A stretch of DNA of 64,000 nt, taken from Anaerolineaceae bacterium. Lineage in GTDB: Bacteria; Chloroflexota; Anaerolineae; Anaerolineales; Anaerolineaceae. Under the pieces are notes generated by a model. It made no database searches. It worked only from the letters and a program-made list of their open reading frames with translations, and was not told where the DNA came from. Positions 29,329 to 44,833 of the stretch are shown here, piece by piece (within the stretch, counting starts at the first letter, position 1; each line of letters begins with the position of its first letter). The stretch lies in contig DAOUGM010000015.1 of NCBI GenBank assembly GCA_034428895.1, positions 743 through 64,742 on the forward strand. The letters run 5' to 3'. The translations under genes were made by a program, and so were the position numbers.

Positions 29329-31038
29329 CTAGATTCTTTCAACGCAGCCGGCGCTCACGAGGAATTCCATTCCCTGACGCAGTTGCTCAATGGATAGACC
29401 CGGTTCAACTTCCAGTGTACGGCATGCCGTGACCGGCAGGTAACGGGCAACCATGCGGAAATCCACGTCGCCGGTCCCCGGCTGCTGGTGGTCGGTGATC
29501 CCTTTTACATCATGCAAATGTGTACCGACGATGCGATGCCCAAACCACCTGAGCCAATCTTCATGATCGCACAATCCCAGGGCGCTCAAGGTCTGCGCAT
29601 GCCCCGTGTCGTACTGAAACCCGAACCAGCTTTCCTCGCAGAGGTTCAACAGCTTTTCCATCTCACCCGGGATGGGAATATCATAATATCGATAACGATT
29701 TTCCAACCCGATTTTCAACCCGCAGGAACGGGAAAAATCGATCACTTCCTGGATGCTTTTCAGCACCTGATCCAAATGCGGACCAGCCACTTGGGCACGG
29801 TGGGTTATCAACTCATTTTTCAGTTGTTCATATTCTCGCGTGTTTTTCAGTCCTTGTTTATACAACTCTCTCAGCCGCCGGTCGCGCGAGCGGTCTCCCA
29901 TGATCATACCCGGATGAATGACGACACTTTTCGAACCCAGATGGTATGCCAGGTCGATCGATCTCTTGATGATGTCGACACCTTTAATGCGCCGGTCTTC
30001 CTCCAGTGAGGATACCTGGTAGTCATTCACCTTGATGTCGTCTACAGTATAAACTGCCGGGCAGGGATCGTGAACGGTTGAAATATAAAAGCGGTCCTTG
30101 TCCCATTGCTCGAATAATGCGGGAACGACCTTGTGGTTGAGTTCAAAGCGGCCAAAACCAGCCAAACGGGCTTGATAAAATGTATCGTTGAAAGGAATAG
30201 ATTGATCGATACCCCACATGGTGGAAAGAGCGGCGTCGAACAGGGAAACCGGTTCGATAGGAGTAGAACTAGCAGAAGTGGTTTTTACTCCTGGATAGAT
30301 ATCCAGCAATTCACTTAAACGCCGAATCGAATGATCGGGTTTCGGCAGCAGATGTCCGTCTTTTTCCGGTTCAAAATCATCCAAATCGGTTTCATCAGAG
30401 TCATACCCTTCGGCATTGATCAGCACTGCCTGACCGTAATTCGATTGGCGCGCGCCCAGCAAGTCCCTCGAAGGGCGGTCGCCAACATAAACGCACTCTT
30501 GCGGGTGAACCCCGGTTAATCGGGCGGCTTCCAGGAATAGGGAAGGATGAGGTTTTCGGCGACCGAAAACGCAGGACAGGATGACGCAGGAAAAGAGATC
30601 GGCAAGCCCTGTTTCGGCCAGGATCTGGTATGCCTCCACGGAAGAGGTTGTGTTGCTGATCAACCCCAGTTTATAACCGCGCTTCGACAGGGCGCGCATC
30701 GTTTCCGCCATATCAGGCAGAAGACGCTTTTCATTCGATTCGCGCCACATCTGGTTGATCTTGACTGCATTTTCTCGAATAAAATCGACTGGATGGTCGG
30801 GCAGTAAAAACCGTGACCAAAGGTCAGCCTCGGCAAGCTCAAGGTAGGCAGGTTTGCTCCAACGGCGGTAGGCTTTTTCTCCCTTATGGATGCGTGAGAT
30901 GAATTCCTCGGGGGAGGTTTTTTCTCCCAGGAAGACGATCAGTTCTTTGGTTTTTTCGAGGTTGCGGCCTTGCTGGGAATTCGAAACGCGCAGCGTGCCG
31001 CCGATATCAAAAAAGAGGGCTTTAATGGTTGATTGCAT
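29329..31038 (-). CDS. Fusion protein: HAD-like hydrolase domain (motif I DIGGT) plus xylose-isomerase-like TIM barrel (AP_endonuc_2 family)
   Basis: N-terminal part: FFDIGGTL, LGLISNT, RRKPHP, YVGDRPSRD. C-terminal part: IHPG, GLENRY, YDTGH, HLHD...DH..PGTGDVDF, as in sugar-phosphate isomerases/epimerases of this fold. Confidence 0.8.
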   Translation of the reverse strand: MQSTIKALFFDIGGTLRVSNSQQGRNLEKTKELIVFLGEKTSPEEFISRIHKGEKAYRRWSKPAYLELAEADLWSRFLLPDHPVDFIRENAVKINQMWRESNEKRLLPDMAETMRALSKRGYKLGLISNTTSSVEAYQILAETGLADLFSCVILSCVFGRRKPHPSLFLEAARLTGVHPQECVYVGDRPSRDLLGARQSNYGQAVLINAEGYDSDETDLDDFEPEKDGHLLPKPDHSIRRLSELLDIYPGVKTTSASSTPIEPVSLFDAALSTMWGIDQSIPFNDTFYQARLAGFGRFELNHKVVPALFEQWDKDRFYISTVHDPCPAVYTVDDIKVNDYQVSSLEEDRRIKGVDIIKRSIDLAYHLGSKSVVIHPGMIMGDRSRDRRLRELYKQGLKNTREYEQLKNELITHRAQVAGPHLDQVLKSIQEVIDFSRSCGLKIGLENRYRYYDIPIPGEMEKLLNLCEESWFGFQYDTGHAQTLSALGLCDHEDWLRWFGHRIVGTHLHDVKGITDHQQPGTGDVDFRMVARYLPVTACRTLEVEPGLSIEQLRQGMEFLVSAGCVERI

Positions 31039-31065: not shown

Positions 31066-32496
31066 TCAATTTTTAAGGATTGATACTTCAAGAAGCTCGT
31101 TAAACGTATCTATATACACGTCTGCCACGGCATTCTGTTCATAATTGAAGGCGATGGTTTTCATGCCCACGGCCCTGGCACCCTCAAGTTCGTATGCCTT
31201 GTGCCCCACGAAGACGGCTTCTTCAGGGGGAATGCCTGTCTGCCGTATGGCTTCTTCATACATGATCGGATGCGGCTTTCGCATGCCCATTTCCTTTGAG
31301 CTGATGACTACGTCCCACACGCAGCCAAATCCGTGCTGGTCGAACCAGGCTAATTTCCTGGAGAAATGCATGGCTGTATCGGTGATGATGCCGAGGATGA
31401 AACCTTTTTCCTTCAAGCAGTTGATCGTTTCAGGCACCCCTTCGACGATGGCAACCGTGTCATCATCCTGCCGGATGGCTTTCATCCCTTCCTGGATTTC
31501 GTCGAGGTCAATAATTCCGTATAACCGGATCAATTTTTCGTAATACTCCCGGCGTTCGATCTTCCCGGAAAACGCCAGGTCTCTCAAGCGCATTCTTTCC
31601 GTTTCAAAATCGGGAACTGGTTGCAATATTTTACCTGAAAGATATGCTTTCAGGTGTTTTTCCTTTTCAGGCCGGTAATACAGGATATCACCGGCATCAA
31701 AGAATATGGCTTTGATCTTTCGTTCTGCGGCAGTGTGTGTTCCTCTCCGTTCCTTGTGGATTTCATTTTTCAGGATCGGCAGCAGCTCATTCATGTTATC
31801 GATCACGACATCAGGCACGGCGCCTTCATCTTTTTCTCCATCATCATACTGATGGCGAATTTGAATGGCCAGTTGAAACCCCGCCTTTTTTGCCCCCAAT
31901 ATGTCGCGGCTGATCTTGTCTCCGATATAGGCACACGCACCGGTGGGGAAATTTGCCAGCCTTGCCGCGTGATAGAAAATGGACGGATCGGGTTTCCGCC
32001 GTCCGTATTGCGAGGATAGTATGATCGGGTCAAAGTATTGCTTGACCCCGTAATTTTCCAAAGTTATGGGAACCTGTGTGAGACTTTGCGTGTTGCTGAT
32101 GCATCCAATGTGCAAACCAAATTTCTGAATTGCTGCCAGTACTTGCGGCAACTCCGGCCGCATCTCACGAATATAAAATTTCGCTTCATATAAGTAGGAT
32201 AGATCTTCGGATATTTTTTTTAGCGCGTGAAGATCGATCGGCAGGTCGTTGAAAACATACTTCGACCAAATTACAAAGGTCGGCAGCTCGATCCTGGAGG
32301 TGAAATTCCATTTCCGGTAGGCGCCGATGCCGTGAGAGATCAGATCAGTCAATTGCTGATCGTCCAATGGCAAAGAAATGCCGGTAGTTTCGAGGCATTC
32401 GCGAAAGAGGTGAACTCGACTCAAGCGAAATTCTTTGGTAAATCGGAAGCTCTCGATGGTTCCGCCCACATCAAAGAAAATCGCTTTTAGGTCCAT
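31066..32496 (-). CDS. Double HAD-domain protein (two tandem HAD-like domains)
   Basis: Domain 1: FFDVGGTI, IGCISNT, RRKPDP, YIGDKISRD. Domain 2: FFDAGDIL, LGIITDT, MRKPHP, FVGHKAYELEG (motif IV Asp replaced by His). Confidence 0.8.
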   Translation of the reverse strand: MDLKAIFFDVGGTIESFRFTKEFRLSRVHLFRECLETTGISLPLDDQQLTDLISHGIGAYRKWNFTSRIELPTFVIWSKYVFNDLPIDLHALKKISEDLSYLYEAKFYIREMRPELPQVLAAIQKFGLHIGCISNTQSLTQVPITLENYGVKQYFDPIILSSQYGRRKPDPSIFYHAARLANFPTGACAYIGDKISRDILGAKKAGFQLAIQIRHQYDDGEKDEGAVPDVVIDNMNELLPILKNEIHKERRGTHTAAERKIKAIFFDAGDILYYRPEKEKHLKAYLSGKILQPVPDFETERMRLRDLAFSGKIERREYYEKLIRLYGIIDLDEIQEGMKAIRQDDDTVAIVEGVPETINCLKEKGFILGIITDTAMHFSRKLAWFDQHGFGCVWDVVISSKEMGMRKPHPIMYEEAIRQTGIPPEEAVFVGHKAYELEGARAVGMKTIAFNYEQNAVADVYIDTFNELLEVSILKN

Positions 32497-32623: not shown

Positions 32624-33853
32624 TTACTTCGCCAGGTTGAGCAGATAGAAATCGCGTGCTTCGACCATGTGGTCATAAGTGTATTGTTCTGCGATCAACC
32701 AGGTCATCGACTGCATTTCTTCCAGGGTCTTTTGACCTTCAGGAACCACATAGGAGGTGTCGGGGAAGAAGGTTCCAAACTTGGCCCATGGCTTCCTGCC
32801 TTCTTCACTGGTCTGCCACTTGATCCACAATTTGGCTGCATTGGGGTGAGGAGCCTGGTTGATAATGCCCAGGTAGCTCTGGCTCTGAATACCCAGGACG
32901 GGGGTGATTCCCCAGCAGGGTTCAAACGCCAGATTTCCATCGAGAACATCAGGATAATTGGAATATGAACCCAGAGCCATATAGCTATCCTTCATTCCCG
33001 GGGTGGCGAAAGCCGTATCGACCTCATCGCCGCCCGGTTCGGGGATCGGACCGTTCTGGGCAAAGCGTTTCAACCACAGCCAGCCGGCATCCGGAGTATC
33101 CGCATCCAAGACAGGTTCGGACCCGTACAGCTCCACGTAGGCGGCTTTCAATTCGTCTGCATGATAGGCGATGGTAATGAGTTTGCTCAGGGTGGATGCA
33201 TCATTGAGAGGATCCTCGATGAAGAATTTGCCTTTCCACTCAGGATTGGTGAATTCCCAAATGTTCTTAACCGGGCAGGTTTCGTTCAGCTCAGAGTTGT
33301 AGGCGAACACGCTGGTGCCCAGGCGGCTCATCAATAACGGTTGTGTGTATTGCTCGGGGGTTACAGCAAGCAGGTTATCCGGAACGAAGCGCCAGACATA
33401 TTTTTTCGGCAGCACATTGCCGACAAGTTCCGCGCCGCCGCTGCTTGCCCAAACATCACCGGTGAAGGCGCCGGCTTTTTGCTCTTCGACTGTCTTGAGC
33501 AGCACATCGTCGCCGCCGAGGTCGAAGGCCTGTACTTTAATGCCGGGATATTTTTCCATGAAACCTTCCGCGGCTTTTTCGATCTTGGAGGTGTTCGCGT
33601 AAACCAGCACTTCACCTTCCGCAATGGCGGCTGCTTCGATGGCGGCCCAATCCTGGGCACCTGTATCATACGGGCCAAGCTGATTGGCTTTTAACCATTC
33701 CTCTTGAGGGGTGAGCGGGGCCTCGGTGGCCGGGGCTTCGGTAGCCGCAGGGGGCGCAGCAGTTTCTGCTGGAGGGGCGGCTGTTGGGGTGGCGCAGGCG
33801 GCCAGAAAACTGATCAACAGTACAAGCGTTACAAATCGAAACAACGTTTTCAT
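32624..33853 (-). CDS. ABC transporter substrate-binding lipoprotein, AfuA/FbpA-like family
   Basis: 409 aa with a signal peptide plus lipobox (LISFLAAC), then the linker ATPTAAPPAETAAPPAATEAPATEAP. The body resembles iron(III)/Afu-type periplasmic binding proteins. Confidence 0.8.
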   Translation of the reverse strand: MKTLFRFVTLVLLISFLAACATPTAAPPAETAAPPAATEAPATEAPLTPQEEWLKANQLGPYDTGAQDWAAIEAAAIAEGEVLVYANTSKIEKAAEGFMEKYPGIKVQAFDLGGDDVLLKTVEEQKAGAFTGDVWASSGGAELVGNVLPKKYVWRFVPDNLLAVTPEQYTQPLLMSRLGTSVFAYNSELNETCPVKNIWEFTNPEWKGKFFIEDPLNDASTLSKLITIAYHADELKAAYVELYGSEPVLDADTPDAGWLWLKRFAQNGPIPEPGGDEVDTAFATPGMKDSYMALGSYSNYPDVLDGNLAFEPCWGITPVLGIQSQSYLGIINQAPHPNAAKLWIKWQTSEEGRKPWAKFGTFFPDTSYVVPEGQKTLEEMQSMTWLIAEQYTYDHMVEARDFYLLNLAK

Positions 33854-33967: not shown

Positions 33968-35050
33968 TTATCCGGTGACTAAATTCCCGGATTCCTTGTC
34001 ATATAGATTGACCGCATCCTCATCAAACGACAGCCACACTTTTTGATCCATTTGGATTTTGCTGACACCCATTTCTCTGATGGTCAGCTCTGTGTCTCCC
34101 TTGCGGGCAACGATGGTGGTTTCAGCACCTGATGGTAATACTGAATAAGCCTGGAATTCGACTGCGCTCCTATTGGGAGTGATGTGAATTGTGATGTCTT
34201 CCGGGTGAATTCCAACGACAACGTCACCTGTCTTGCCGTATGTCCTTACCGGGACATTGAATTTTCCAATATCGACTTCATTTTTTCCGGATACCCAGCC
34301 TGGAAGCAAATTGACCTTTGGATTACCGATAAAATCTGCCACAAAGAGATTGGCCGGGCAGTGATAGATCCTGTCAGGAGAGTCGATTTGCTGGATGACG
34401 CCTTCTTTCATCACGGCGATGTTGCTTGACATGGTCATGGCCTCAACCTGGTCGTGGGTCACATAAACAGTAGTGGCTCCGGAAACATGATGCAGGCGTT
34501 TGATTTCTGTGCGCATATCCATTCTCAGGCGCGCATCGAGGTTGGATAGGGGTTCATCCATGAGAAATACCTTCGGTCGATATGCCAGCATGCGGGCCAG
34601 TGCGATACGCTGCTGCTGTCCGCCGCTCATCTCACGCGGATAACGGTCCTCATATCCGCTCATTTTTACTTCTTCCAGGGCTTCCTTGACCCGCTTGCTC
34701 ATTTCCTCTTTGCTCATTTTCTGCATTTCAAGGGCAAAGGTAATGTTCTTATAAACATTCATGTGAGGCCACAACGCATAATTCTGGAACACAAGACCGA
34801 GGTCGCGCTGACCGGGTGGAAGGGAGATGCCTTTGGAATGAGAATAGACCAGCTTGTTGCCGATCAGGATTTCTCCGTCATTGGGATCTTCGAGTCCGGC
34901 CAGGCAGCGCAGCAAGGTGGTCTTTCCGCAACCTGAAGGCCCGAGCAGTGTCAAGAAAGTTCCAGGGTCGATCGTCAACGAGACATCATTGACTGCCACA
35001 ACGTCGCCAAATTTTTTTGTGAGATTTTTAATAATGATGGGGGTTTCCAT
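33968..35050 (-). CDS. ABC transporter ATP-binding protein (FbpC/PotA/MalK type with C-terminal TOBE-like domain)
   Basis: 360 aa with Walker A GPSGCGKTT, signature MSGGQQQR, Walker B VFLMDEPLSNLD and H-loop YVTHDQ. Confidence 0.9.
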   Translation of the reverse strand: METPIIIKNLTKKFGDVVAVNDVSLTIDPGTFLTLLGPSGCGKTTLLRCLAGLEDPNDGEILIGNKLVYSHSKGISLPPGQRDLGLVFQNYALWPHMNVYKNITFALEMQKMSKEEMSKRVKEALEEVKMSGYEDRYPREMSGGQQQRIALARMLAYRPKVFLMDEPLSNLDARLRMDMRTEIKRLHHVSGATTVYVTHDQVEAMTMSSNIAVMKEGVIQQIDSPDRIYHCPANLFVADFIGNPKVNLLPGWVSGKNEVDIGKFNVPVRTYGKTGDVVVGIHPEDITIHITPNRSAVEFQAYSVLPSGAETTIVARKGDTELTIREMGVSKIQMDQKVWLSFDEDAVNLYDKESGNLVTG

Positions 35051-35062
35051 GATCCATTCTCC

Positions 35063-36898
35063 TTACATTCCAAGGCCTTTTTTCAGGCTGCCGCCACGGA
35101 AACGGCTGATAATAAAATTGCCGATCAGAACAAGAACGATCAGCAGGATGATGACCGCATCTGCCTGTTGTTCGTTGCCATTTTCAATGTATCTCATGGT
35201 CATACTGGCCAGAACTGCTGTGGTAGGAGTGACCAGCAGGATGATGAGGGATAGTTCGCGCATCGTGGTAATGAATGTCAGCAGGAAGCCCGACACAAAG
35301 CCGGTGCTGGTCAGCGGAAATATGACGCGCTTGAAGCGCTGCCAGGGGGAAGCCCCGGCAATGGCGGCTGCCTCCTCAAGCTCTTTGCTCACCTGCAGCA
35401 TGGCCGATACACCACTGCGCGCAGAATAGGGAATATGCTTGGCAACCGATACCACCACCAGCAGCGCAAAAGTGCCGTAAAGCGGTGGAATTGGCCCCAC
35501 AGATCTCGTAAACATCGAGATGTAAACTGCGCCGAAAGCAATGCCAGGGATGACATAGGGAATGAACGACATTTGCTCGACAATTTTGGATAACCTCGTA
35601 CCGCGCCCCTTAACGATCGCGTAGCCCAGGATCACGCCCAGTAATGCCGTGAAGAGGGCGGTCAGCAACGACAGCCGGATGGAGTTCCATGCGCCGCGCC
35701 AGATCCTGTTGTTCAACAGGATCCCGGGTTCTCCGTTATTGATCGAGATATCTCCTTTGCCGATCCAATGGGCTAAAGTGAAATTGCTCAGGCTGTAGTC
35801 GCCGGTGCGCAGCATCAGCGTGCTGTAGACCAGGAGAGCAAGGGGCAAAACTGCAATGATGAATTCGAACACAACTACGAGCGCAGTAAAGATGACCTTA
35901 AAATTACGCAGTTTTACCTTTTTTGCCATGAAACCACGCCCGCCAATGGTTTCGTAACTCTTCCTGGTGCCAACCAATTTCTGGTTGATCATGATGGTCA
36001 CCATGGCAAAAAGGATCAAGATGATGGCGAGTACGAACCCGTCTCCATAGTTGCCAATTCCGGTGTTGGAACGCAGCATGGTGGAAAGTGTGTAATATCC
36101 CACCGGAACGCCGAGCACGTTGGGGCCGCCAAAGGTCCCCATAGTCTTGGAAAAGGTCATAATGAATCCCGAGGCGATTGCCGGAATGACCAGTGGGAAG
36201 GTGATCTTTCTCATGATGCGCCAGCGTCCGGCGCCAGCCAGTTCCCCGGCTTCTTCAAGGGATGAATCGATCGATAAAAGCGCAGCAGAAACAAAAAGGA
36301 AGAAAAAGGTGTAATAATGCAATCCGCTGCTGACGATGATGGGGAATGGCCCGTATGCCAGCCAGTCTGGCGTTGGAGCCCCCGTGATGAACTCGAGAAA
36401 ACCGGGCGTCCCCCCCGATTTTTGGTTTTTGAACAGCACCGTCCAGGCCATGGCGATCGTCCAGGAGGGCATGATGTAGGGAATGGTTGCCAGCATGTTG
36501 ATAATGCCTTTTCCCGGCACGTCGGTGCGCACCACCATCCATGCCATCAGACCGCCAATGATCAGTGCCAGACCTGTTGCGCCCAGCGAAACAGTCACAG
36601 AATGCATGAGCGGCTCGTAGGTCATGATCCTGGCAATTTTGCTGGTCAACATCCTCAACCAGTGATACCAGGTAAAATCGCCTACATTTGCATCCTTGAG
36701 TACACGCAGGTCATTTTCCTGGACCGTGATCGTGGTCATGAGCATGCGGTAAAGGGGGATGATGACCATGTACACCATGACCGCCAGCATGATCAGGGAC
36801 AACACCACATGGGGGGAGGTTATCCAACGGAAGAACCTCCGCAGATAAGCCAGCCATTTCTCGGAAGAATCTTGTCTTGAGTCTGATAAAACAGCCAT
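35063..36898 (-). CDS. ABC transporter permease, fused double transmembrane domain (FbpB/AfuB-like)
   Basis: 611 aa with two BPD-type permease repeats, each carrying an EAA-like loop (LEEAGELAGAGRW.. and LEEAAAIAGASPW..). Confidence 0.9.
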   Translation of the reverse strand: MAVLSDSRQDSSEKWLAYLRRFFRWITSPHVVLSLIMLAVMVYMVIIPLYRMLMTTITVQENDLRVLKDANVGDFTWYHWLRMLTSKIARIMTYEPLMHSVTVSLGATGLALIIGGLMAWMVVRTDVPGKGIINMLATIPYIMPSWTIAMAWTVLFKNQKSGGTPGFLEFITGAPTPDWLAYGPFPIIVSSGLHYYTFFFLFVSAALLSIDSSLEEAGELAGAGRWRIMRKITFPLVIPAIASGFIMTFSKTMGTFGGPNVLGVPVGYYTLSTMLRSNTGIGNYGDGFVLAIILILFAMVTIMINQKLVGTRKSYETIGGRGFMAKKVKLRNFKVIFTALVVVFEFIIAVLPLALLVYSTLMLRTGDYSLSNFTLAHWIGKGDISINNGEPGILLNNRIWRGAWNSIRLSLLTALFTALLGVILGYAIVKGRGTRLSKIVEQMSFIPYVIPGIAFGAVYISMFTRSVGPIPPLYGTFALLVVVSVAKHIPYSARSGVSAMLQVSKELEEAAAIAGASPWQRFKRVIFPLTSTGFVSGFLLTFITTMRELSLIILLVTPTTAVLASMTMRYIENGNEQQADAVIILLIVLVLIGNFIISRFRGGSLKKGLGM

Positions 36899-36988: not shown

Positions 36989-37873
36989 TCACTCTCCGTT
37001 GTTGTTCAACGCTTTCAATTGCTCCCGCAGCGAATCCAGTTTGTCCAGTGTCGGCATGATGGTTTCCTGCTCTTCGCCGGCAACGGAAAGGAGCAATGCG
37101 TTGATCACCGTCATGGGTACAACCAGGGAGTGGAATTCCCCCACCGGTCCACGGCGCGCTGCGAGCATCACGTCCGCCTTGTCGCCCAGGAGAACATCCA
37201 ACGTGTCGGTGAGCATGATGATGGGGCAGCCTACCTTTTTGCCGTAATCCAGGACGAGATTCAAAGCGGGATTCTGATCGAAAAAGCAGATGACGAAAAG
37301 CAGGTCGTTTTTGGTTAACTGCAGCAGCGGTTCGAGCATTTCGCGGCCGGAGGTCTTGAGGGGGATGACATGTTTTCCGAAACGATGCAGCCGGATTTCC
37401 ATGAGATCCACCAGGGAGATGGAAGGCCCAAGACCGAATACGAAGATGCGCTGGTGGGAATGCATCAGTTTTACGGCCTTGTTCATGGCTTTGCGGTCAA
37501 TGGATTCCAACGCCTGGGTCAGGTAATCGATCTCGGTGGCAGTGGTGCGCTCAAAAATATCTCCCCCTTCGCGCATTTCATCCAGGCGGCCCCGCAAGCG
37601 TGCCGAGTGCGTGACGCGCTGCCGGAAATTCTGCTGAAGAACGGCACGCATGGCTGGGTAACTGCCAAAGCCCAGCGTTCTGGCAAAACGAACCAGGGTT
37701 GCCTCGCTCAAGTCCAGGCGCCTGGCAATCTCCCCCGCGGAAAGGAACGCAGATTCCTCCTGGTTCTTGCGCAGGAAATTGGCGATGCGCTTCTCACTTT
37801 TTGTGAAACTGGCGAATTGTTCACTGATCAAAAGGCTGAAATCGACATTTTGGGGTAGTTTTTCGTCAGTCAT
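36989..37873 (-). CDS. RpiR/MurR-family transcriptional regulator (HTH_6 plus SIS phosphosugar-binding domain)
   Basis: HTH region SEKRIANFLRKNQEESAFLSAGEIARRLDLSEATLVRFARTLGF followed by a SIS domain (IFVFGLGPS...). Start revised to ATG at 37873 (MTDEKLPQ...). Confidence 0.85.
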   Translation of the reverse strand: MTDEKLPQNVDFSLLISEQFASFTKSEKRIANFLRKNQEESAFLSAGEIARRLDLSEATLVRFARTLGFGSYPAMRAVLQQNFRQRVTHSARLRGRLDEMREGGDIFERTTATEIDYLTQALESIDRKAMNKAVKLMHSHQRIFVFGLGPSISLVDLMEIRLHRFGKHVIPLKTSGREMLEPLLQLTKNDLLFVICFFDQNPALNLVLDYGKKVGCPIIMLTDTLDVLLGDKADVMLAARRGPVGEFHSLVVPMTVINALLLSVAGEEQETIMPTLDKLDSLREQLKALNNNGE

Positions 37874-37941
37874 GTACCACCTGGATATTTGATTAATGAA
37901 AAAAGGGAAAAACGACAATATCGCAAATGGTGTATGACCAC

Positions 37942-37983
37942 TTGCATTTGCAACAGTATACAGCAAATTAAAAATATATGCAA
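37942..37983 (-). promoter_or_regulatory. Candidate sigma-70 promoter with an adjacent TTGCA-AA-TGCAA palindrome (candidate RpiR operator)
   Basis: Minus strand: TTGCAT (37978-37983), 17-nt spacer, TATACT (37955-37960), then TTGCAAATGCAA (37942-37953) at about +1. More TTGCA half-sites lie upstream (TTTGCAATTTTACTTGCAT). Confidence 0.45.
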
Positions 37984-38014: not shown

Positions 38015-39220
38015 TTAATGATTGGATAAGCCATCACCCAAAACCTTTTGGAGATCTGTCGTAAGCCAGATCTCGGCATTCGTGGTATCGACCAGCATGT
38101 CGCATGTCTTCATTTGCGGTCGGTAGACCTCTTCCGCCATGATGTATTGCTCCCGGAAATAGCGGTTCAGGAAATACATCAACTCATACTTCTTGCGGTA
38201 CTCCATGTCGCGCTTCCATTTTCTCTTCAACCGGATTTCATCATCGGTCAGATAAACCACTTTGAGGCTGATCATGCTGGCGATCTCAGGCAGGAGGAAC
38301 GGGAAATTCCCTTCCATGAATATTACATCGGCAGCGGGTACATAAATGGGCGTGCATCCAGGTCTCAGGTTTCCCTGCATGTCGTGGCTGGATGTGGCAC
38401 GCACGAAATCATACCGGGGAATGCTGATCGCTTTTCCATGATAGATATCCATTAGCGATTGCTTGAACAGTTCATAATGCAGGGCTTCCTTCCCGCGCGA
38501 GTCGATGCCGTGTTCCTCCCTGAAATCGCGGTCGGTCAGGAAATTGTCCATCTCGATGCCGATCACTTTTCTTCCGGTGCGCTCGAATGCTTCCCGCAGC
38601 CGCTCGACGATCTCTGTTTTCCCGGCCGCGGTTTGCCCAGCGATGGCAATAATTACGGGTAACCCTTTCAACGCAGCCAGCTTTTGGATCGTACTGAGAA
38701 AACACTCGTCCACCTCGGCATTTGCCTGTTGGAATAATTTGTATCCAACCGATTGCACGTGATCAAAAAGATCACGGCGGCTCTCGAATTTCCGCCAGGG
38801 TTTGTACGCCAGGTGAGCCTCGATCTCGGGTGTGAAATATGCCGTACGGTGGAGGAAATAAAATCCGCGGATGTCGAAATAGAAATGCTTCTTGATCCAA
38901 TCCGGCGGGTAGGCTTCCGTTACCAATCCCACACACAGCATGCGCGTCAGGTTAAGGATGTTTTCATCCATCACAATTCGACCCCCGATGCGGGGTTTGA
39001 GCTGGACGGCTTCGTAAAAATTGATGTTGTTGACCTTTCTCTCGATCTCCAACATGGAATCCGGTTTTACTGCCTCCCACCCATCCGCCAGATGCACGCC
39101 TTCGCAAGCGTAGTGAAATTCATCCAATTCCAGGTCAGCCATGCCAGGGCAAACGGACTTCATTTTTTCATACAATGCCGGCAGGCAATCCTGCAGGGAA
39201 GATCGGGATGACACGCTCAT
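38015..39220 (-). CDS. Two-domain protein: unrecognised N-terminal domain (~190 aa) plus uridine kinase / phosphoribulokinase-family P-loop kinase domain (paralog A)
   Basis: 401 aa with P-loop IAIAGQTAAGKTE. The rest follows the Udk/PRK pattern: MDNF...(H)YELF...G..ISIPRYDF...DVIFMEGNFPF...LKVVYLTDDEIRLKRKWKRD. It is a paralog of 40453..41655. Confidence 0.75.
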   Translation of the reverse strand: MSVSSRSSLQDCLPALYEKMKSVCPGMADLELDEFHYACEGVHLADGWEAVKPDSMLEIERKVNNINFYEAVQLKPRIGGRIVMDENILNLTRMLCVGLVTEAYPPDWIKKHFYFDIRGFYFLHRTAYFTPEIEAHLAYKPWRKFESRRDLFDHVQSVGYKLFQQANAEVDECFLSTIQKLAALKGLPVIIAIAGQTAAGKTEIVERLREAFERTGRKVIGIEMDNFLTDRDFREEHGIDSRGKEALHYELFKQSLMDIYHGKAISIPRYDFVRATSSHDMQGNLRPGCTPIYVPAADVIFMEGNFPFLLPEIASMISLKVVYLTDDEIRLKRKWKRDMEYRKKYELMYFLNRYFREQYIMAEEVYRPQMKTCDMLVDTTNAEIWLTTDLQKVLGDGLSNH

Positions 39221-39226
39221 AAAAAG

Positions 39227-40432
39227 TTATGCTCCGTATTTCGCAAGACGTCCAGCATGCCCAAGGGCGAGGGGCATGATGCTTGTAGCCGGGATGCACC
39301 CCAGGCTGCCATGCGCACAGGCGCGTTCGCCGAATTGGGAGATCCCTTCGGGCCGGCACGTGCTGGAGTACAGCAGCAGGGGGACGGGATGCCAGCTGTG
39401 GGATTGCAGCACTGCCGGGGAGGAATGATCCCCTCCGATGATGAGTACATCCGGCTGCAGCTCTGTGACATGCGGCAGCAGTGCGTCGAACTCTTCAATG
39501 GCCTTGACCTTGCCGTCGAAATCGCCCATCTCGCCGCAGGTATCGGTCTTTTTAAAATGAAGATAAAAGAAATCGTAGTTCTGCCAGTGTTTCTCCATTG
39601 CCGCGAACTCATCCGCCAGGATTGTTCCACCAACGGGCAATACCTCCATCCCCACCAGCCTGGCGACCCCGCGGTACATTCCGTTGACCGCCACGGCTGC
39701 GGAGGTTATCTTATAGAGGTCAGTAAAGCTGGCCAGTGTGGGAAATTTTGAAAAACCGCGCAGCATGATCATATTGGCGGGTGAATGTCCTTTTAACACC
39801 ATCCTGGCTTTGGCGATGAATTCATTCACGATCTCAGCGGTTTTCGCAGAACCGGGTGTGCGTGGGTTGGCGGGATACGGCGGCACCCCGTTGATCAACG
39901 GATCCGAATCCGTCAGGTCGGCTTCGAGACCCCTGGCGCGCAGGATAAATGCAAAGCGGTGTTCTTTTACCGGTTCGACAAACAGCTCCACCCCATCGAT
40001 CTGGATTGCACGCAAAAGTTCCACCAGTTGTGCGCTCTCTGCCGATGGGATCCGTCCGGCACGCCTGTCGATGACCCGCCCATGCTCATCGACCGTACAG
40101 AAATTTCCCCGCGCCGCGATGTCATCGGGGCCAACCTCGAAATCCACCCCCAGCGCTTCCAGAACGCCTCGGCCAATCTCGTTTTTGATGGGATCGTAAC
40201 CAAAGAGCGCCAGGTGCCCCGGACCGCTGCCGACGGTGATGCCAGGTCCGGCAGGCTGGCTCAAACCCAGGAGAGAACGATTGGCGAGGGCATCCAGGTT
40301 GGGAGTGAAAGCAGTTTCCAGCTCGGTCTTTCCTCCCACCTCGCGTGGTAAACCGCCCAGGCCGTCCAGAATGAGCATGACAATTTTGCTGGTCGCCGGA
40401 ACGGTTTGTTTTTGAAAAAAGGATGTAAACAT
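39227..40432 (-). CDS. apgM: ApgM-type (archaeal-type, cofactor-independent) phosphoglycerate mutase family protein
   Basis: 401 aa with IVMLILDGLGG, the catalytic-Ser context VGSGPGHLALFGYDP, and the C-terminal GGDHSSP and H..PVP metal-ligand motifs of the alkaline-phosphatase superfamily. Confidence 0.8.
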   Translation of the reverse strand: MFTSFFQKQTVPATSKIVMLILDGLGGLPREVGGKTELETAFTPNLDALANRSLLGLSQPAGPGITVGSGPGHLALFGYDPIKNEIGRGVLEALGVDFEVGPDDIAARGNFCTVDEHGRVIDRRAGRIPSAESAQLVELLRAIQIDGVELFVEPVKEHRFAFILRARGLEADLTDSDPLINGVPPYPANPRTPGSAKTAEIVNEFIAKARMVLKGHSPANMIMLRGFSKFPTLASFTDLYKITSAAVAVNGMYRGVARLVGMEVLPVGGTILADEFAAMEKHWQNYDFFYLHFKKTDTCGEMGDFDGKVKAIEEFDALLPHVTELQPDVLIIGGDHSSPAVLQSHSWHPVPLLLYSSTCRPEGISQFGERACAHGSLGCIPATSIMPLALGHAGRLAKYGA

Positions 40433-40452: not shown

Positions 40453-41655
40453 TCATGGTTGTGGGAACGATGAGAGATCTAATCCTTGAGCAAGTTTTGA
40501 TGTGACCCAGAGCGCTGCTCCGGTGGTATCCACGACCATATCACATAAAGACATCAAAGGGCGATACACTTCCTCCGCCCGCAGGAACTGGGTCCTGAAA
40601 TAACGGTTGCAGAAATAAACCTGGTCGTATTTCTTGCGGTAATCGATATCCCGCCGCCACTTGCGTTTGAGCCGCACCGGATCGTCAGTCAAATAGACGA
40701 TTTTCAACCCCACCCACTGGGCGATTTCGGGCAAATGGAAGGGGAAATTGCCTTCCAGGAAGATGATATCCGCCGGGTCAATTTGAATGGGTGTCTGCCC
40801 GGGTCGAAGATTTCCGTCGAGGTCGTGGCTCGAAGTGGTGGTGATGAAGTTGTAGCGCGGGATATTGACCGTTCGCCCCTGCATGAGATTTTGCAGGCTG
40901 TTGCGGAAAATCTCAAAGTGGATCACGTTCTGATCCAGTACCTTGCCGTCGCGAAAGCTGCCGTCCTTATAAAAGTTGTCCATTTCAATGGAAACGATGC
41001 TCTTGCCGCGTTGTTGAAACATCTCTTTCAGCCTTTGGGCAATTTCCGTTTTCCCTGAACCGGAAGGGCCTGCGAGGGTCATAAGAAAGGGAAGCGGAGC
41101 AGTCTCAACCAGTTTATGAACGATGTGCATGAACGCCTGGTCGATTTCCTCGTTTGCCGCAATGAACTCCCGCAGGCCGATGTCCTGGCGGCTTTCGAAG
41201 GTTCTTTGTTTTTTCTCGAAAAGTAAGCGCGGTTTTTCATTCAAATGCCCGCGGACCTCCGGAGGAAAATACTCTGTCCGAACGAAGAATAAAAAACCGC
41301 GAATATCAAAGTAAAACAGGTTGCCGATCCAGTCCACCGGGTAAGTACCGGTTACCAATCCTTTGAACAAAGTCTGCGCGAGTTGAACGATGGTTCGATC
41401 AAGTACGATATGATCTTCTCTCAGCGGTTTGAGTTGTATGCCGCTGAAGAATTTGTGCTGGCGAACGCGTGTTTCGATTTCCTCCACGCCCGGGAGAGGA
41501 ACGCTTAACCAGCCGGATTCGGGAATAAGGTTGCCGAGTGCATAATCGAACTCATACCATTCAAGATCGTTGATCCCCGGACAGACCTTTTTCATTGCAT
41601 CGAAAAGGATGCGGGAGAAAAGCCCGCGATCATTCAGGATCGAGGCATCGATCAT
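40453..41655 (-). CDS. Two-domain protein: unrecognised N-terminal domain plus uridine kinase / PRK-family P-loop kinase domain (paralog B)
   Basis: 400 aa with P-loop TLAGPSGSGKTE. It is collinear with paralog A over its full length, for example CPGINDLEWYEFDYA, YPVDWIGNLFYFDIRGFLFF, NIPRYNF and IVYLTDDPVRLKRKWRRD. Confidence 0.75.
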   Translation of the reverse strand: MIDASILNDRGLFSRILFDAMKKVCPGINDLEWYEFDYALGNLIPESGWLSVPLPGVEEIETRVRQHKFFSGIQLKPLREDHIVLDRTIVQLAQTLFKGLVTGTYPVDWIGNLFYFDIRGFLFFVRTEYFPPEVRGHLNEKPRLLFEKKQRTFESRQDIGLREFIAANEEIDQAFMHIVHKLVETAPLPFLMTLAGPSGSGKTEIAQRLKEMFQQRGKSIVSIEMDNFYKDGSFRDGKVLDQNVIHFEIFRNSLQNLMQGRTVNIPRYNFITTTSSHDLDGNLRPGQTPIQIDPADIIFLEGNFPFHLPEIAQWVGLKIVYLTDDPVRLKRKWRRDIDYRKKYDQVYFCNRYFRTQFLRAEEVYRPLMSLCDMVVDTTGAALWVTSKLAQGLDLSSFPQP

Positions 41656-41658
41656 CGT

Positions 41659-43266
41659 TTATCCTCCATAATAATGCTGACCCATGCCTAACACCAATGC
41701 ATCGTATGCTTTTTTGATCCTGGTATAGTTGCCGTCGCGATCGAGGGCGATCCCGCGGCCGACGGCTGTGACAATTTGTCCAACTCCGATCGCGGCGATC
41801 TTGTGTTCGAGTTTTTCAAGCAGGGCGGGCGCACTGCCGGGTTCGGTGCTCCTGCCGTCGAAAATTAAATGAAGATAGACTTCCTGTAAACCCTTTTCAC
41901 TCGCCATCTGAAGTAAAGCGAGAGGGTAGTCAATACAGCCGTGGGAGCTCTTTTCGGTGAGCAGTCCGATCAAATGCAAACTGGTCTTGCGCTGCAATAC
42001 GCCGTCGATCGCATGAAGAAAGACCTCGTTTTTTGAAAAGGTGCCATCACCCAATGAATTATCGAGGCGCACATCGTCCTGCTCGATGATCCGCCCGGCG
42101 CCGATATTCAAATGTCCGGCCTCGGAGTTGCCGTTCTTTCCGGCTCGAAGCCCGACGTCTTCCCCTGCGGCTTGCAGTTGTGCAAGACCATACCGCTGCA
42201 GCAAACCATCCCAGATCGGGGTGCGCGCGAGAAATATGGGGTTGGTATCGTCGTCTTTGCCAATGCCCCAGCCGTCCAGGATGATCAGAAGTACCTTTCT
42301 TCTTTCTCCATATTCGTGATTTGCGATAAGGTTGTTTCCGGTCATGGAGTCCGGAACGTTCAAGCCCATGGCCGACAGTATTGTCGGAGCAAGGTCGGCA
42401 AGCTTACCGTTGGAAACACGTAAGGGTTTACTGCTTTTAGGGTCGATCAGGACCAGGGGCACCGGGTTCGCGGTATGAGAGACGTGCGGTTTTCCTTCCT
42501 CGGTGAAGAGCTGTTCAAGGTTGCCGTGGTCGGCGGTGACCGCGATCACGTAACCGGCGGTTGTGGCTGTTTTAACGACTTCACCCAGGTGACAATCAAG
42601 TGCTTCGGCGCATTGGATCTTGGCTTCACGATTCGATGTATGCCCGATCACATCCCCGTTGGCAAAATTGGTCACGATCAGGTCATAACCTGCCTGGATG
42701 GCCCGGGTGACTTCCCGGGTGACCTCGGGCAGGTTGAGCTGCGGCACCTGGTCGAATGGGATGCCTTTAGGCGAGGGGATGCGTTCATCTGTTTCACCAT
42801 GAAAAGGCTGATTATTTCCACCGTTAAGGAAGAAGGTCACATGGGCGAATTTCTCGGATTCCGCGCAATGGAACTGGCTCAAGCCGGCGCGGCTGACCGC
42901 TTCTGCAAGCGTGCCCTTGATCTGCGAGGGCAGGAAAGCCACCGGCAGGTCCTTGAATTTTTCGTGGTACAGCGTAAGGATGACAAATTCGAGGGGAGCC
43001 AGGTTCAGGCGTTGAAAATGCGGAAAATTAATATCAGTGAAAGCCTCGGTCAGTTCGATCTCGCGCTCGCCGCGCCGGCAGCAAAAAATGACGCCATCCC
43101 CCGGGCTGATCACTCCGACGGGAGTGCCGGATTCATCGACGCGCACCAACGGCTCCATCGAGTAATCTGTTTGCCCGGCTGCATATGCCTGTTCGACAGC
43201 CCTGGCCAGTTGAATTCCTCCATGCGAGAGATCGTTTTTCATCTTCATCCCTTTCGCCTCACTCAC
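41659..43266 (-). CDS. GpmI-type cofactor-independent phosphoglycerate mutase homolog with circularly permuted domain order
   Basis: 535 aa. Residues ~1-315 match the C-terminal part of canonical iPGM (AESEKFAHVTFFLNGG, NFANGDVIGH, VTADHGN, SHTANPVP, LADLAPTILSAMGL, MTGNNLI). Residues ~323-535 match the canonical N-terminal part (KVLLIILDGWG, GNSEAGHLNIGAGR, SLHLIGLL, IFDGRS, GRGIALDRD). Confidence 0.8.
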   Translation of the reverse strand: MSEAKGMKMKNDLSHGGIQLARAVEQAYAAGQTDYSMEPLVRVDESGTPVGVISPGDGVIFCCRRGEREIELTEAFTDINFPHFQRLNLAPLEFVILTLYHEKFKDLPVAFLPSQIKGTLAEAVSRAGLSQFHCAESEKFAHVTFFLNGGNNQPFHGETDERIPSPKGIPFDQVPQLNLPEVTREVTRAIQAGYDLIVTNFANGDVIGHTSNREAKIQCAEALDCHLGEVVKTATTAGYVIAVTADHGNLEQLFTEEGKPHVSHTANPVPLVLIDPKSSKPLRVSNGKLADLAPTILSAMGLNVPDSMTGNNLIANHEYGERRKVLLIILDGWGIGKDDDTNPIFLARTPIWDGLLQRYGLAQLQAAGEDVGLRAGKNGNSEAGHLNIGAGRIIEQDDVRLDNSLGDGTFSKNEVFLHAIDGVLQRKTSLHLIGLLTEKSSHGCIDYPLALLQMASEKGLQEVYLHLIFDGRSTEPGSAPALLEKLEHKIAAIGVGQIVTAVGRGIALDRDGNYTRIKKAYDALVLGMGQHYYGG

Positions 43267-43284: not shown

Positions 43285-44073
43285 CTATTCCAACCCGCTC
43301 GATGTGGATAATTCGACTGTGCGAATCTTCTCCATGCACACCTGCGGGACCTTGGGGAAGAGCTGTAATAGCTCACTAAACTCGTAGATAACGGCATCCG
43401 GTTTGTTTTCTTCTGTGACTGATTCCTGCGCCAAATCCTCCGGACTGATCATGATGACGACCATGCCGAAGCCGGCGTTGCGCGTACCGGTCACATCACG
43501 CTGCAGGTTGTCGCCGACATAGACGCATTTGGCGGGTTCCGTTTCAGCGCGGCGTGCAGCTTCATAATAGATCTCCGGATCCGGTTTGCGTACGCCCATC
43601 ACCGAGGAGAGCACCACGGATTTGAAATATCCGGCCAGGTTGTCGGCTTCCAGCCAATCCGGTATTTCCCTGGAGGTGATCACGTTGCTGATCAAGCCCA
43701 GGGTGTATCCACGGCGGTGAAGCTCGGCAACCACTTCACTGCCGTTTTCCACCATCACCCTGAGTCCCATGGACTGGCGATACTGGTAGGTCAATTCAAG
43801 TCCCAATGGGGCAACTTTTTCCGCCGGAAACTCCGGTGCCAACCAGCGCGTCCATAACTCCGACTCGGGAGCCTCTTTGAGGTTGGCAAAAGCCCACTTT
43901 CGGTATACCTTATATCGTTCGTCCACTTTTTGAATAAATGAATCCGGATCCTCATGCGTGCCCAACAGTTCAACGATCCTGCGCCTGGCTCGGGCTTGAT
44001 GGTCTTCATTGGGCGTCAGGATGCGCAGGGTATTGCCGACGTCCAGGAAAATTGCTTCGATCTCAGGGTTCAT
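43285..44073 (-). CDS. HAD-like hydrolase, DVGNT subfamily (paralog 2)
   Basis: Motifs IFLDVGNTL, LGLISNV, VRKPDP, YVGDNLQRD. Start revised to ATG at 44073 (MNPEIEAIF..., RBS AAGGGAAG), which removes the overlap with the upstream paralog. Confidence 0.8.
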   Translation of the reverse strand: MNPEIEAIFLDVGNTLRILTPNEDHQARARRRIVELLGTHEDPDSFIQKVDERYKVYRKWAFANLKEAPESELWTRWLAPEFPAEKVAPLGLELTYQYRQSMGLRVMVENGSEVVAELHRRGYTLGLISNVITSREIPDWLEADNLAGYFKSVVLSSVMGVRKPDPEIYYEAARRAETEPAKCVYVGDNLQRDVTGTRNAGFGMVVIMISPEDLAQESVTEENKPDAVIYEFSELLQLFPKVPQVCMEKIRTVELSTSSGLE

Positions 44074-44101
44074 TTTTCGGTCTTCCCTTATGAAGAATGG
44101 G

Positions 44102-44833
44102 TTATTTGCGGGGTGGAAAAATATCCAGCAGTTGGCGGGTTTCCTTGATGGCGTAATCCGGTTGATGTTCCCCACTCGGAGGTTCTTTTGCCAGGGTGGC
44201 AGGCTCTTCAAAGAGGATCATCATCCCAAATCCGGCTGCGCGCGTCCCATCCACATCGCGCACCGGGTTATCACCCACGTAAGCGCATTTGGCGGGTTCC
44301 ACGCCGATATCGCGAGCAGCCATCCAATAAATTTCAGGGTCGGGTTTTCGATACCTTACTTTGGATGAGAGGATTACGGTTTTTAAGTATTTACCCAGAC
44401 CCTCGCTTTCCATCCAATCCGGGATCTCGGTCTCGGTGATGGTGTTGGCAATGATGCCCAGTTTATAACCGCGGCGGTCGAGCTCAATGATGGTCGATTT
44501 GGCGTCATCACGCGGAACCCGTCGTCCGTCATGATCGCGCCACAAACGGGTCAGTTTGCCAGCCATGGGAGCGATCTTCTCATAGGGGTAATCGGGGAGG
44601 AGGTGGATGGTCCATAATTCCTTCTCTGAGGCTTCGACCAGCGTTTCCTTGGATGTTTTGCGGTGTTTTTTCCATCGGGTTTCGAGCTTTTCGAAGAATT
44701 CCTCTTCGGTTTCCGTGGTGCCAACCAGCGCCATTAAGTCCTTGCGGGCCTGGGCTTGAAACTCAGGCTCTTCCAACAGAATTCGCAACGTGTTGCCGAC
44801 ATCCAGAAAAATGGCTTCAATTTCGGAATTCAT
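44102..44833 (-). CDS. HAD-like hydrolase, DVGNT subfamily (paralog 1)
   Basis: 243 aa with motifs IFLDVGNTL, LGIIANT, YRKPDP, YVGDNPVRD. RBS is CAGGAG. It is the first gene of the co-directional array. Confidence 0.8.
   Translation of the reverse strand: MNSEIEAIFLDVGNTLRILLEEPEFQAQARKDLMALVGTTETEEEFFEKLETRWKKHRKTSKETLVEASEKELWTIHLLPDYPYEKIAPMAGKLTRLWRDHDGRRVPRDDAKSTIIELDRRGYKLGIIANTITETEIPDWMESEGLGKYLKTVILSSKVRYRKPDPEIYWMAARDIGVEPAKCAYVGDNPVRDVDGTRAAGFGMMILFEEPATLAKEPPSGEHQPDYAIKETRQLLDIFPPRK

Follow-up and report, generated by a model that had tools for sequence, protein, structure and literature searches.

We describe here an unusual gene in a 64,000-nucleotide stretch of the genome of an Anaerolineaceae bacterium (assembly GCA_034428895.1, contig DAOUGM010000015.1, positions 743 to 64,742), which we refer to as the window. 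The open reading frame (ORF) at 41659..43266 on the minus strand encodes a member of the cofactor-independent phosphoglycerate mutase (iPGM; GpmI) family in which the two parts of the chain are found in exchanged order. We conclude that the gene is a real and evolutionarily maintained circular permutant, and that its product is probably a catalytically competent specialised paralog which uses an imported phospho-acid and is not the housekeeping phosphoglycerate mutase (PGM).

The permutation is evident from alignments with family profiles and with a known structure, all of which fall into two pieces. Compared with the G. stearothermophilus iPGM (1EJJ), query residues 322-532 match residues 3-213 without gaps and query residues 23-315 match residues 219-510 (overall E 1.9e-108), a non-collinear match that is far beyond chance. 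Both iPGM domains are present, the alkaline-phosphatase-like phosphatase (Metalloenzyme, PF01676; 211.7 bits, best stretch 113-303) and the transferase (iPGM_N, PF06415; 159.2 bits, best stretch 402-530, corresponding to profile positions 2-130), and each profile scores far above its cut-off and is split in two stretches. TIGR01307 gives 486.3 bits summed over two stretches, one of which aligns residues 21-314 with model positions 214-504, and this exceeds the equivalog cut-off of 330.65; the score of 402 to NF003897 is under its cut-off of 862, and Pfam also reports weak matches to Sulfatase and PglZ. A circular permutation of GpmI had been proposed in the initial annotation and is borne out by these alignments, as are the fusion of the old termini through a short linker and the placement of the new termini inside the transferase domain, at canonical positions ~210-218; in the 1EJJ alignment the cut itself falls at ~214-218. 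Every one of the motifs quoted there is present in the ORF, and the position it gave for the linker agrees with residues 316-321.

In the canonical iPGM chain the phosphatase domain is discontinuous, with the transferase domain inserted into it. This collinear arrangement (phosphatase N-part, inserted transferase, phosphatase C-part) is not found in the window protein, where the phosphatase domain is one continuous stretch (residues ~113-395) and the two chain ends together make up the transferase domain. The segments are as follows, in the order of the polypeptide and by alignment with 1EJJ, with canonical residues in brackets; the domain boundaries at 76/77 and 310/311 are those that we take to apply in the 1EJJ structure, and they are compatible with the limits of the Pfam stretches.

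42931..43200, minus strand: second half of the transferase domain, residues ~23-112 (~219-310), carrying R65 (R261) and R68 (R264).
42322..42930, minus strand: alkaline-phosphatase-like C-part of the phosphatase domain, residues ~113-315 (~311-510), carrying K139 (K336), D205 and H209 (D403 and H407), D246 and H247 (D444 and H445), and H264 (H462).
42304..42321, minus strand: junction linker, residues 316-321 (NHEYGE), joining the old C-terminus to the old N-terminus, conserved in length and variable in sequence.
42082..42303, minus strand: N-part of the phosphatase domain, residues 322-395 (3-76), carrying D331 (D12) and the nucleophile S381 (S62; codon 42124-42126).
41671..42081, minus strand: first half of the transferase domain, residues 396-532 (77-213), carrying H442 (H123), R472 (R153), S473 in place of D154 (codon 41848-41850), R504 (R185) and R510 (R191).

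The iPGM enzyme is a monomer in which two hinge peptides connect the phosphatase and transferase domains (PMC5382265), and both inter-domain hinges are retained in the permutant. An AlphaFold2 model built with 58 permuted homologs has a predicted local distance difference test score (pLDDT) of 90.6 and a predicted template modelling score of 0.83; the block that contains the linker (residues 311-320) has a pLDDT of 89, and the new termini are located between two predicted helices (514-526 and 17-29). Foldseek comparison of the model with the PDB returns iPGM structures only (E at most 1e-11, best 1.4e-17), with ~275-326 of the 535 residues aligned at a TM score of ~0.45; coverage of about half of the chain is to be expected when an order-dependent aligner meets a permutant. 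The Metalloenzyme match includes the core fold with the bimetal site and Ser/Thr nucleophile of the alkaline phosphatase superfamily, and the protein clearly belongs to the GpmI lineage. As a control for two-piece alignment, a tblastn search of plasmids gave 46 records at ~40% identity, and 12 of the 12 matches listed, mostly annotated as gpmI, align in two pieces; the plasmids searched contain canonical gpmI and no copy of the permuted gene was found among them.

The ORF has 535 codons when read from a GTG, with the stop codon at 41659-41661. An ATG at 43248, 18 nt inside the ORF, is the likelier start because it has a GAGG 8 nt upstream and would yield a product of 529 aa, the same length as a database protein (P0001) that is 99% identical to the window protein. 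The base composition of the ORF agrees with that of its flanks.

The permuted form is widespread. The question of its spread was raised in the initial annotation, and relatives are present in at least 113 GTDB species-representative genomes, from which 80 loci were fetched. Most of these are from Anaerolineae (Chloroflexota); the others include loci from [Clostridium] asparagiforme DSM 15981, which has a complete genome, from cultured Enterocloster lavalensis and from further Clostridiales. Over 120 protein clusters with 64-99% identity are collinear with the query across at least 96% of its length, and the Firmicute protein WP_007708459.1, from cultured Enterocloster asparagiformis, has the same sequence in independent draft and complete assemblies (96 contigs). 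An exhaustive search of 1.84 billion representatives extends this further: among the best 150 there are ~15 full-length permuted clusters (at 50% identity), down to 39% identity to the query. Some of them belong to Limnochordia and other Bacillota, to Ca. Desulfofervidus auxilii, and to a metagenome-assembled genome labelled as Pseudomonadota.

These data bear on the simplest objection, that the ORF arose as a chimera during assembly or is a functionless, decaying remnant of a tandem gpmI duplication, for which the unusual domain order is the sole point in favour. The identical architecture and cut site recur in hundreds of independent assemblies from several phyla, one of them a complete isolate genome; a 58-sequence alignment of permuted homologs has a mean column identity of 71% with invariant active-site residues; and both the confidently predicted fold and the base composition speak against it. 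We regard this explanation as vanishingly improbable. The candidates of an assembly chimera, a decaying tandem gpmI remnant and a pseudogene were all rejected on the strength of conservation in many independent genomes, including that complete one.

To compare active sites, 31 diverse permuted sequences were un-permuted in silico and aligned with 116 canonical iPGMs and 1EJJ. The following positions are invariant in the permuted set, given with their canonical equivalents.

D331 (D12): metal ligand.
S381 (S62): nucleophile.
D205 and H209 (D403 and H407): metal ligands.
D246 and H247 (D444 and H445): metal ligands.
H264 (H462): metal ligand.
H442 (H123): substrate contact.
R504 and R510 (R185 and R191): substrate contacts.
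R65 and R68 (R261 and R264): substrate contacts.
K139 (K336): substrate contact.

The nucleophile and all of the metal ligands are thus kept, as had been suggested from the motifs, and these seven residues are invariant both in the 31 diverse sequences and in the 58-sequence alignment. Nine residues contact 2-phosphoglycerate (2PG) or 3-phosphoglycerate (3PG) in the canonical enzyme (S62, H123, R153, D154, R185, R191, R261, R264 and K336; PMC3886921). The initial annotation held that most of the substrate positions are retained, and this stands for eight of the nine, which are invariant in the 31 permuted sequences; the ninth, D154, is replaced by serine, a change concealed within the IFDGRS motif that the annotation quoted. 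Position 154 is Asp in 113 of 116 canonical iPGMs and Ser in 24 of the 31 permuted representatives, and in the genome set it is Ser (S473 in the query) in all 76 of the complete orthologs, Firmicutes included. Two further substitutions, M189 to Leu and D263 to Glu, go with it throughout the clade. In other permuted lineages the DGRD motif reads DGSD, NRHG, GRRG or DRPG, and this motif is, as far as the alignments indicate, a hot spot of change within an otherwise frozen active site.

The initial annotation judged the window protein probably active; with this set of residues that is a reasonable expectation for phosphoryl transfer, whereas 3PG/2PG mutase activity is putative. In the mechanism that we envisage, the bimetal centre (D331, D205, H209, D246, H247 and H264) would activate Ser381, which would accept the phosphoryl group from the substrate in the manner of iPGM, and a cage of Arg, Lys and His residues (R65, R68, K139, H442, R472, R504 and R510) would hold the substrate. 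The enzyme is probably a specialised phosphomutase or phosphotransferase, whose substrate would be an imported phospho-carboxylic acid akin to phosphoglycerate.

The genomic context is not that of a glycolytic gene. The permuted gene lies in a same-strand cluster with the following members, identified by profile matches and given in the direction of transcription.

44102-44833, minus strand: HAD-IA (CTE7-like) protein, motif I DVGNT, lacking Asp+2.
43285 to ~44073, minus strand: HAD-IA (CTE7-like) paralog of the 44102-44833 gene, motif I DVGNT, lacking Asp+2, directly upstream of the permuted gene.
40453-41655, minus strand: UCK/PRK-like kinase, directly downstream of the permuted gene.
39227-40432, minus strand: ApgM-type (archaeal-type) mutase (NF003160, 563 bits), between the two kinases.
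38015-39220, minus strand: second UCK/PRK-like kinase.
36989-37966, minus strand: RpiR regulator.
35063-36898, minus strand: fused double permease of an ABC importer.
33968-35050, minus strand: ABC ATPase of the importer.
32624-33853, minus strand: Afu/Fbp-class binding protein.
31066-32496, minus strand: double-HAD protein, at the distal end of the cluster.
29329-31038, minus strand: fusion of a HAD with a xylose-isomerase-like TIM barrel (AP_endonuc_2), 569 aa, at the distal end of the cluster.

Neighbouring genes are separated by 3-48 nt between the first HAD and the start of the RpiR gene and by 12-127 nt beyond it; gaps around the three genes downstream of the permuted gene are 3-20 nt, and that between the two HAD genes is 28 nt if the second begins at ~44073. 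The cluster encodes two different alkaline-phosphatase-superfamily 'phosphoglycerate mutases', the permuted iPGM and the ApgM-type protein, and gap, pgk, tpi and eno are not among the neighbours. This association is conserved. Of the 43 related loci for which both 8-kb flanks are available, 42 have an importer component, 40 a HAD, 36 a kinase, 35 an RpiR gene and 32 an ApgM gene. In another lineage the HAD directly upstream is joined to the permuted enzyme: in three independent samples the same operon contains a 786-aa HAD::permuted-iPGM fusion (P0024; L081 8001-10361, L082 and L083).

Several features of the neighbouring genes deserve mention. The two kinases are paralogs (400 aa, 47% identical) that match UCK/PRK over residues ~187-378 only, and their conserved N-terminal ~185 residues have no match in Pfam or among PDB sequences. 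The four HAD genes (five HAD domains) have a motif I of the form D-x-G-N/G-T (DVGNT, DVGGT or DIGGT) without the Asp+2 general acid/base, and ~140 HAD homologs in the related loci (L001-L080) likewise lack it; the operon HADs may be other than ordinary phosphatases, with a chemistry that is not simple phosphomonoester hydrolysis. Separate AP_endonuc_2 genes are found near the permuted gene in L073 and L081. In two genes of the cluster the ORF as called probably begins too far upstream, namely the permuted gene (43248-43266) and the HAD ORF at 43285..44211; the latter (308 aa) runs 110 nt into the upstream HAD gene and likely starts at Met47 (~44073). Elsewhere in the window, the segment 54001-60000 has a G+C content of 0.56-0.58, compared with ~0.50-0.53 in the remainder, and a strongly positive GC skew.

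The binding protein falls by profile in the FbpA/AfuA class, some members of which bind organophosphates, with matches to AfuA (4r72-75), the pyridoxal phosphate (PLP) binder P5PA (6wce), a 2-aminoethylphosphonate binder (4r6y) and proteins deposited as iron-binding, the last of these giving the best matches in a PDB profile search that places the protein in the Afu/Fbp class and does not resolve its ligand. NCBIfam matches of the importer genes (UgpC, PhnT2 and PhnU2) are all sub-threshold. The AfuABC system was originally annotated as iron-transporting and proved to import hexose and heptose phosphates (PMC4546632), and P5PA binds PLP (PMC8427247). The linked importer resembles AfuABC and P5PA in having a fused double permease, one ATPase and a class-D binding protein whose profile matches both AfuA and P5PA; it differs in that the similarity is distant.

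Not all permuted proteins share the substitutions of the window clade. P0135, P0136 and P0168 have the same cut site and retain DGRD, GRYYAMDRD and D263 intact. The P0168 group is tiny (P0286-P0290, ~5 relatives), with canonical enzymes at ~50% identity as the next-best relatives, and P0168 itself (locus L084, 4556-7626) is directly after pgi, overlaps the pgi stop codon and is situated among housekeeping genes; it is probably a permuted glycolytic PGM. The D154-variant clade, in contrast, travels with the Afu/Fbp-type importer and, in Anaerolineae, also with the HADs, the two kinases, the ApgM-type mutase and the RpiR regulator. In distant permuted lineages the kinases and HADs are missing from the locus, yet the same kind of importer adjoins the permuted gene, often along with a LysR regulator, GDPD genes or a metallo-beta-lactamase/beta-CASP gene. 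In the divergent loci L091 (5073-15548) and L088 (8666-9505) both GDPD genes and this importer type adjoin it, and L091 has two permuted copies ~6 kb apart.

In neighbour-joining (NJ) bootstrap analysis the variant clade (28 sequences, including the window gene) and the P0168 group are each recovered in 100 of 100 replicates, and monophyly of all permuted forms in 3 of 100; the point-estimate tree places the P0168 group and P0135 as successive sisters to the variant clade, with weak support. A first NJ tree hinted at multiple independent origins of the permutation; these are not claimed here, since improved sampling moves both lineages to this sister position. A single origin followed by divergence is more parsimonious, because the cut site is identical in every lineage. 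The junction between MTG and LDGWG is 25-29 residues long in permuted proteins, compared with 24-27 in virtual head-to-tail concatenations of canonical enzymes, and on the aligned sequences is thus of the length expected of a native C-terminus followed by a native N-terminus. From this we infer that the most likely origin was a tandem duplication, followed by in-frame head-to-tail fusion and trimming of both ends.

Membership of the alkaline phosphatase superfamily raises the question of whether the clade has turned into a hydrolase (a phosphomonoesterase or phosphodiesterase) that frees phosphate from imported organophosphates, having lost the mutase half-reaction. Without one of the Asp residues that hold the substrate, the dephosphorylated product might be let go more readily, the GDPD genes and importers of the distant lineages would suit such a role, and RefSeq labels of the type 'alkaline phosphatase family protein' or 'sulfatase-like hydrolase' are in keeping with it. 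A simple hydrolase would, however, need neither the entire transferase domain nor the Arg/Lys cage, both of which are invariant, and the operon kinases fit phosphate scavenging poorly; we consider a hydrolytic role distinctly improbable.

It is also conceivable that the permuted gene is simply the glycolytic/gluconeogenic iPGM of the organism, unchanged in function, with D154S and the operon neighbours being incidental. The conservation of all catalytic residues and of eight of the nine contacts is as would be expected of such an enzyme, as is the TIGR01307 score, the pgi-adjoining permuted type suggests that a permutant can plausibly serve glycolysis, and a class-3 fructose-bisphosphatase gene is located ~4 kb from the Firmicute copy. 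Set against these are the replacement in every ortholog of a residue that is nearly universal in canonical enzymes, variation of the whole DGRD motif among permuted lineages (DGRS, DGSD, NRHG, GRRG, DRPG), the presence of two permuted copies at one locus (L091), and tight linkage to an importer, a regulator, kinases, HADs and an ApgM-type mutase and not to glycolytic genes. We think this explanation unlikely, although somewhat less so than hydrolysis, and favour a non-housekeeping role because D154S is invariant in the clade, the DGRD motif is variable, an ApgM-type mutase is co-resident, and the importer and regulator are linked.

Several observations weigh against the role of a specialised paralog using an imported phospho-acid, or against parts of the account given here. 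The TIGR01307 match above the equivalog cut-off, together with the eight contacts, is compatible with a plain 3PG/2PG mutase; the Firmicute copy does not have HAD, kinase and ApgM neighbours; and the importer class also holds true iron transporters. As to origin, the tree does not settle between single and multiple events, and tandem-duplicated (BAB/ABA) intermediates, which the duplication route would pass through, were not found among 270 classified proteins (including the best 150 of the 1.84 billion representatives), an absence that does not exclude that route.

Comparison with known systems places the window protein close to, and distinct from, canonical iPGM (GpmI/GpmM; TIGR01307; 1EJJ, 1O98, 2IFY, 5VPU). 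The two have in common both domains (~40-45% identity over both halves), two hinges, the Ser nucleophile, the seven metal and nucleophile residues and eight of nine substrate contacts; the window protein differs in its permuted chain, which is cut at ~210-218 and fused at the old termini, in its non-glycolytic context, and in the clade-wide Asp154 to Ser, M189 to Leu and D263 to Glu changes. With the permuted iPGMs of canonical signature (P0168/P0286/P0288, P0135 and P0136, all uncharacterised metagenomic proteins) it shares the cut site and junction length, although that group, unlike the window clade, keeps the canonical motifs and is very small. ApgM (NF003160/TIGR00306) and DeoB phosphopentomutase have the same alkaline-phosphatase-superfamily metal core, but the similarity of the window protein to them is weak and local (E ~1e-9) and the cap domain is different. 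The initial annotation knew of no described permuted iPGM, and full-text literature searches, in which coverage is incomplete, likewise gave no relevant description either of one or of other permuted alkaline-phosphatase-superfamily enzymes.

A more specific proposal, to which we would give rather less than even weight, is that the D154-variant permuted clade has a new activity, with an imported phospho-acid other than phosphoglycerate as the substrate of a mutase or transferase reaction, and that this activity is central to an uptake-and-processing pathway not previously described. If so, this pathway would use two kinases with an unmatched N-terminal domain, HADs without Asp+2 and an ApgM-type mutase, and would be conserved across the Anaerolineae, with the core pair of enzyme and importer extending to gut Firmicutes and other phyla. 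The permutation could in that case have enabled the change in specificity, because the chain termini sit in the substrate-holding domain.

The permutation also has consequences for annotation. Full-length permuted proteins are named 'alkaline phosphatase family protein', 'sulfatase-like hydrolase/transferase' or 'hypothetical protein' by RefSeq/NCBI and not iPGM, whereas the name iPGM is given to truncated fragments from these clusters, an inconsistency that arises because the proteins are permuted. Metabolic reconstructions of Anaerolineae and of some gut Clostridia may consequently miscount PGM genes, in either direction. More generally, nature has here run an experiment on protein topology, a clean and widespread circular permutation in a textbook glycolytic enzyme family. 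The enzyme has two domains and two hinges, and its discontinuous domain has been turned continuous and vice versa; forms with a canonical signature can be compared with diverged ones. The conserved operon points to an uncharacterised organophosphate utilisation pathway in abundant fermentative Chloroflexota, for which the cultured and sequenced Firmicute E. asparagiformis DSM 15981 offers an experimental entry point.

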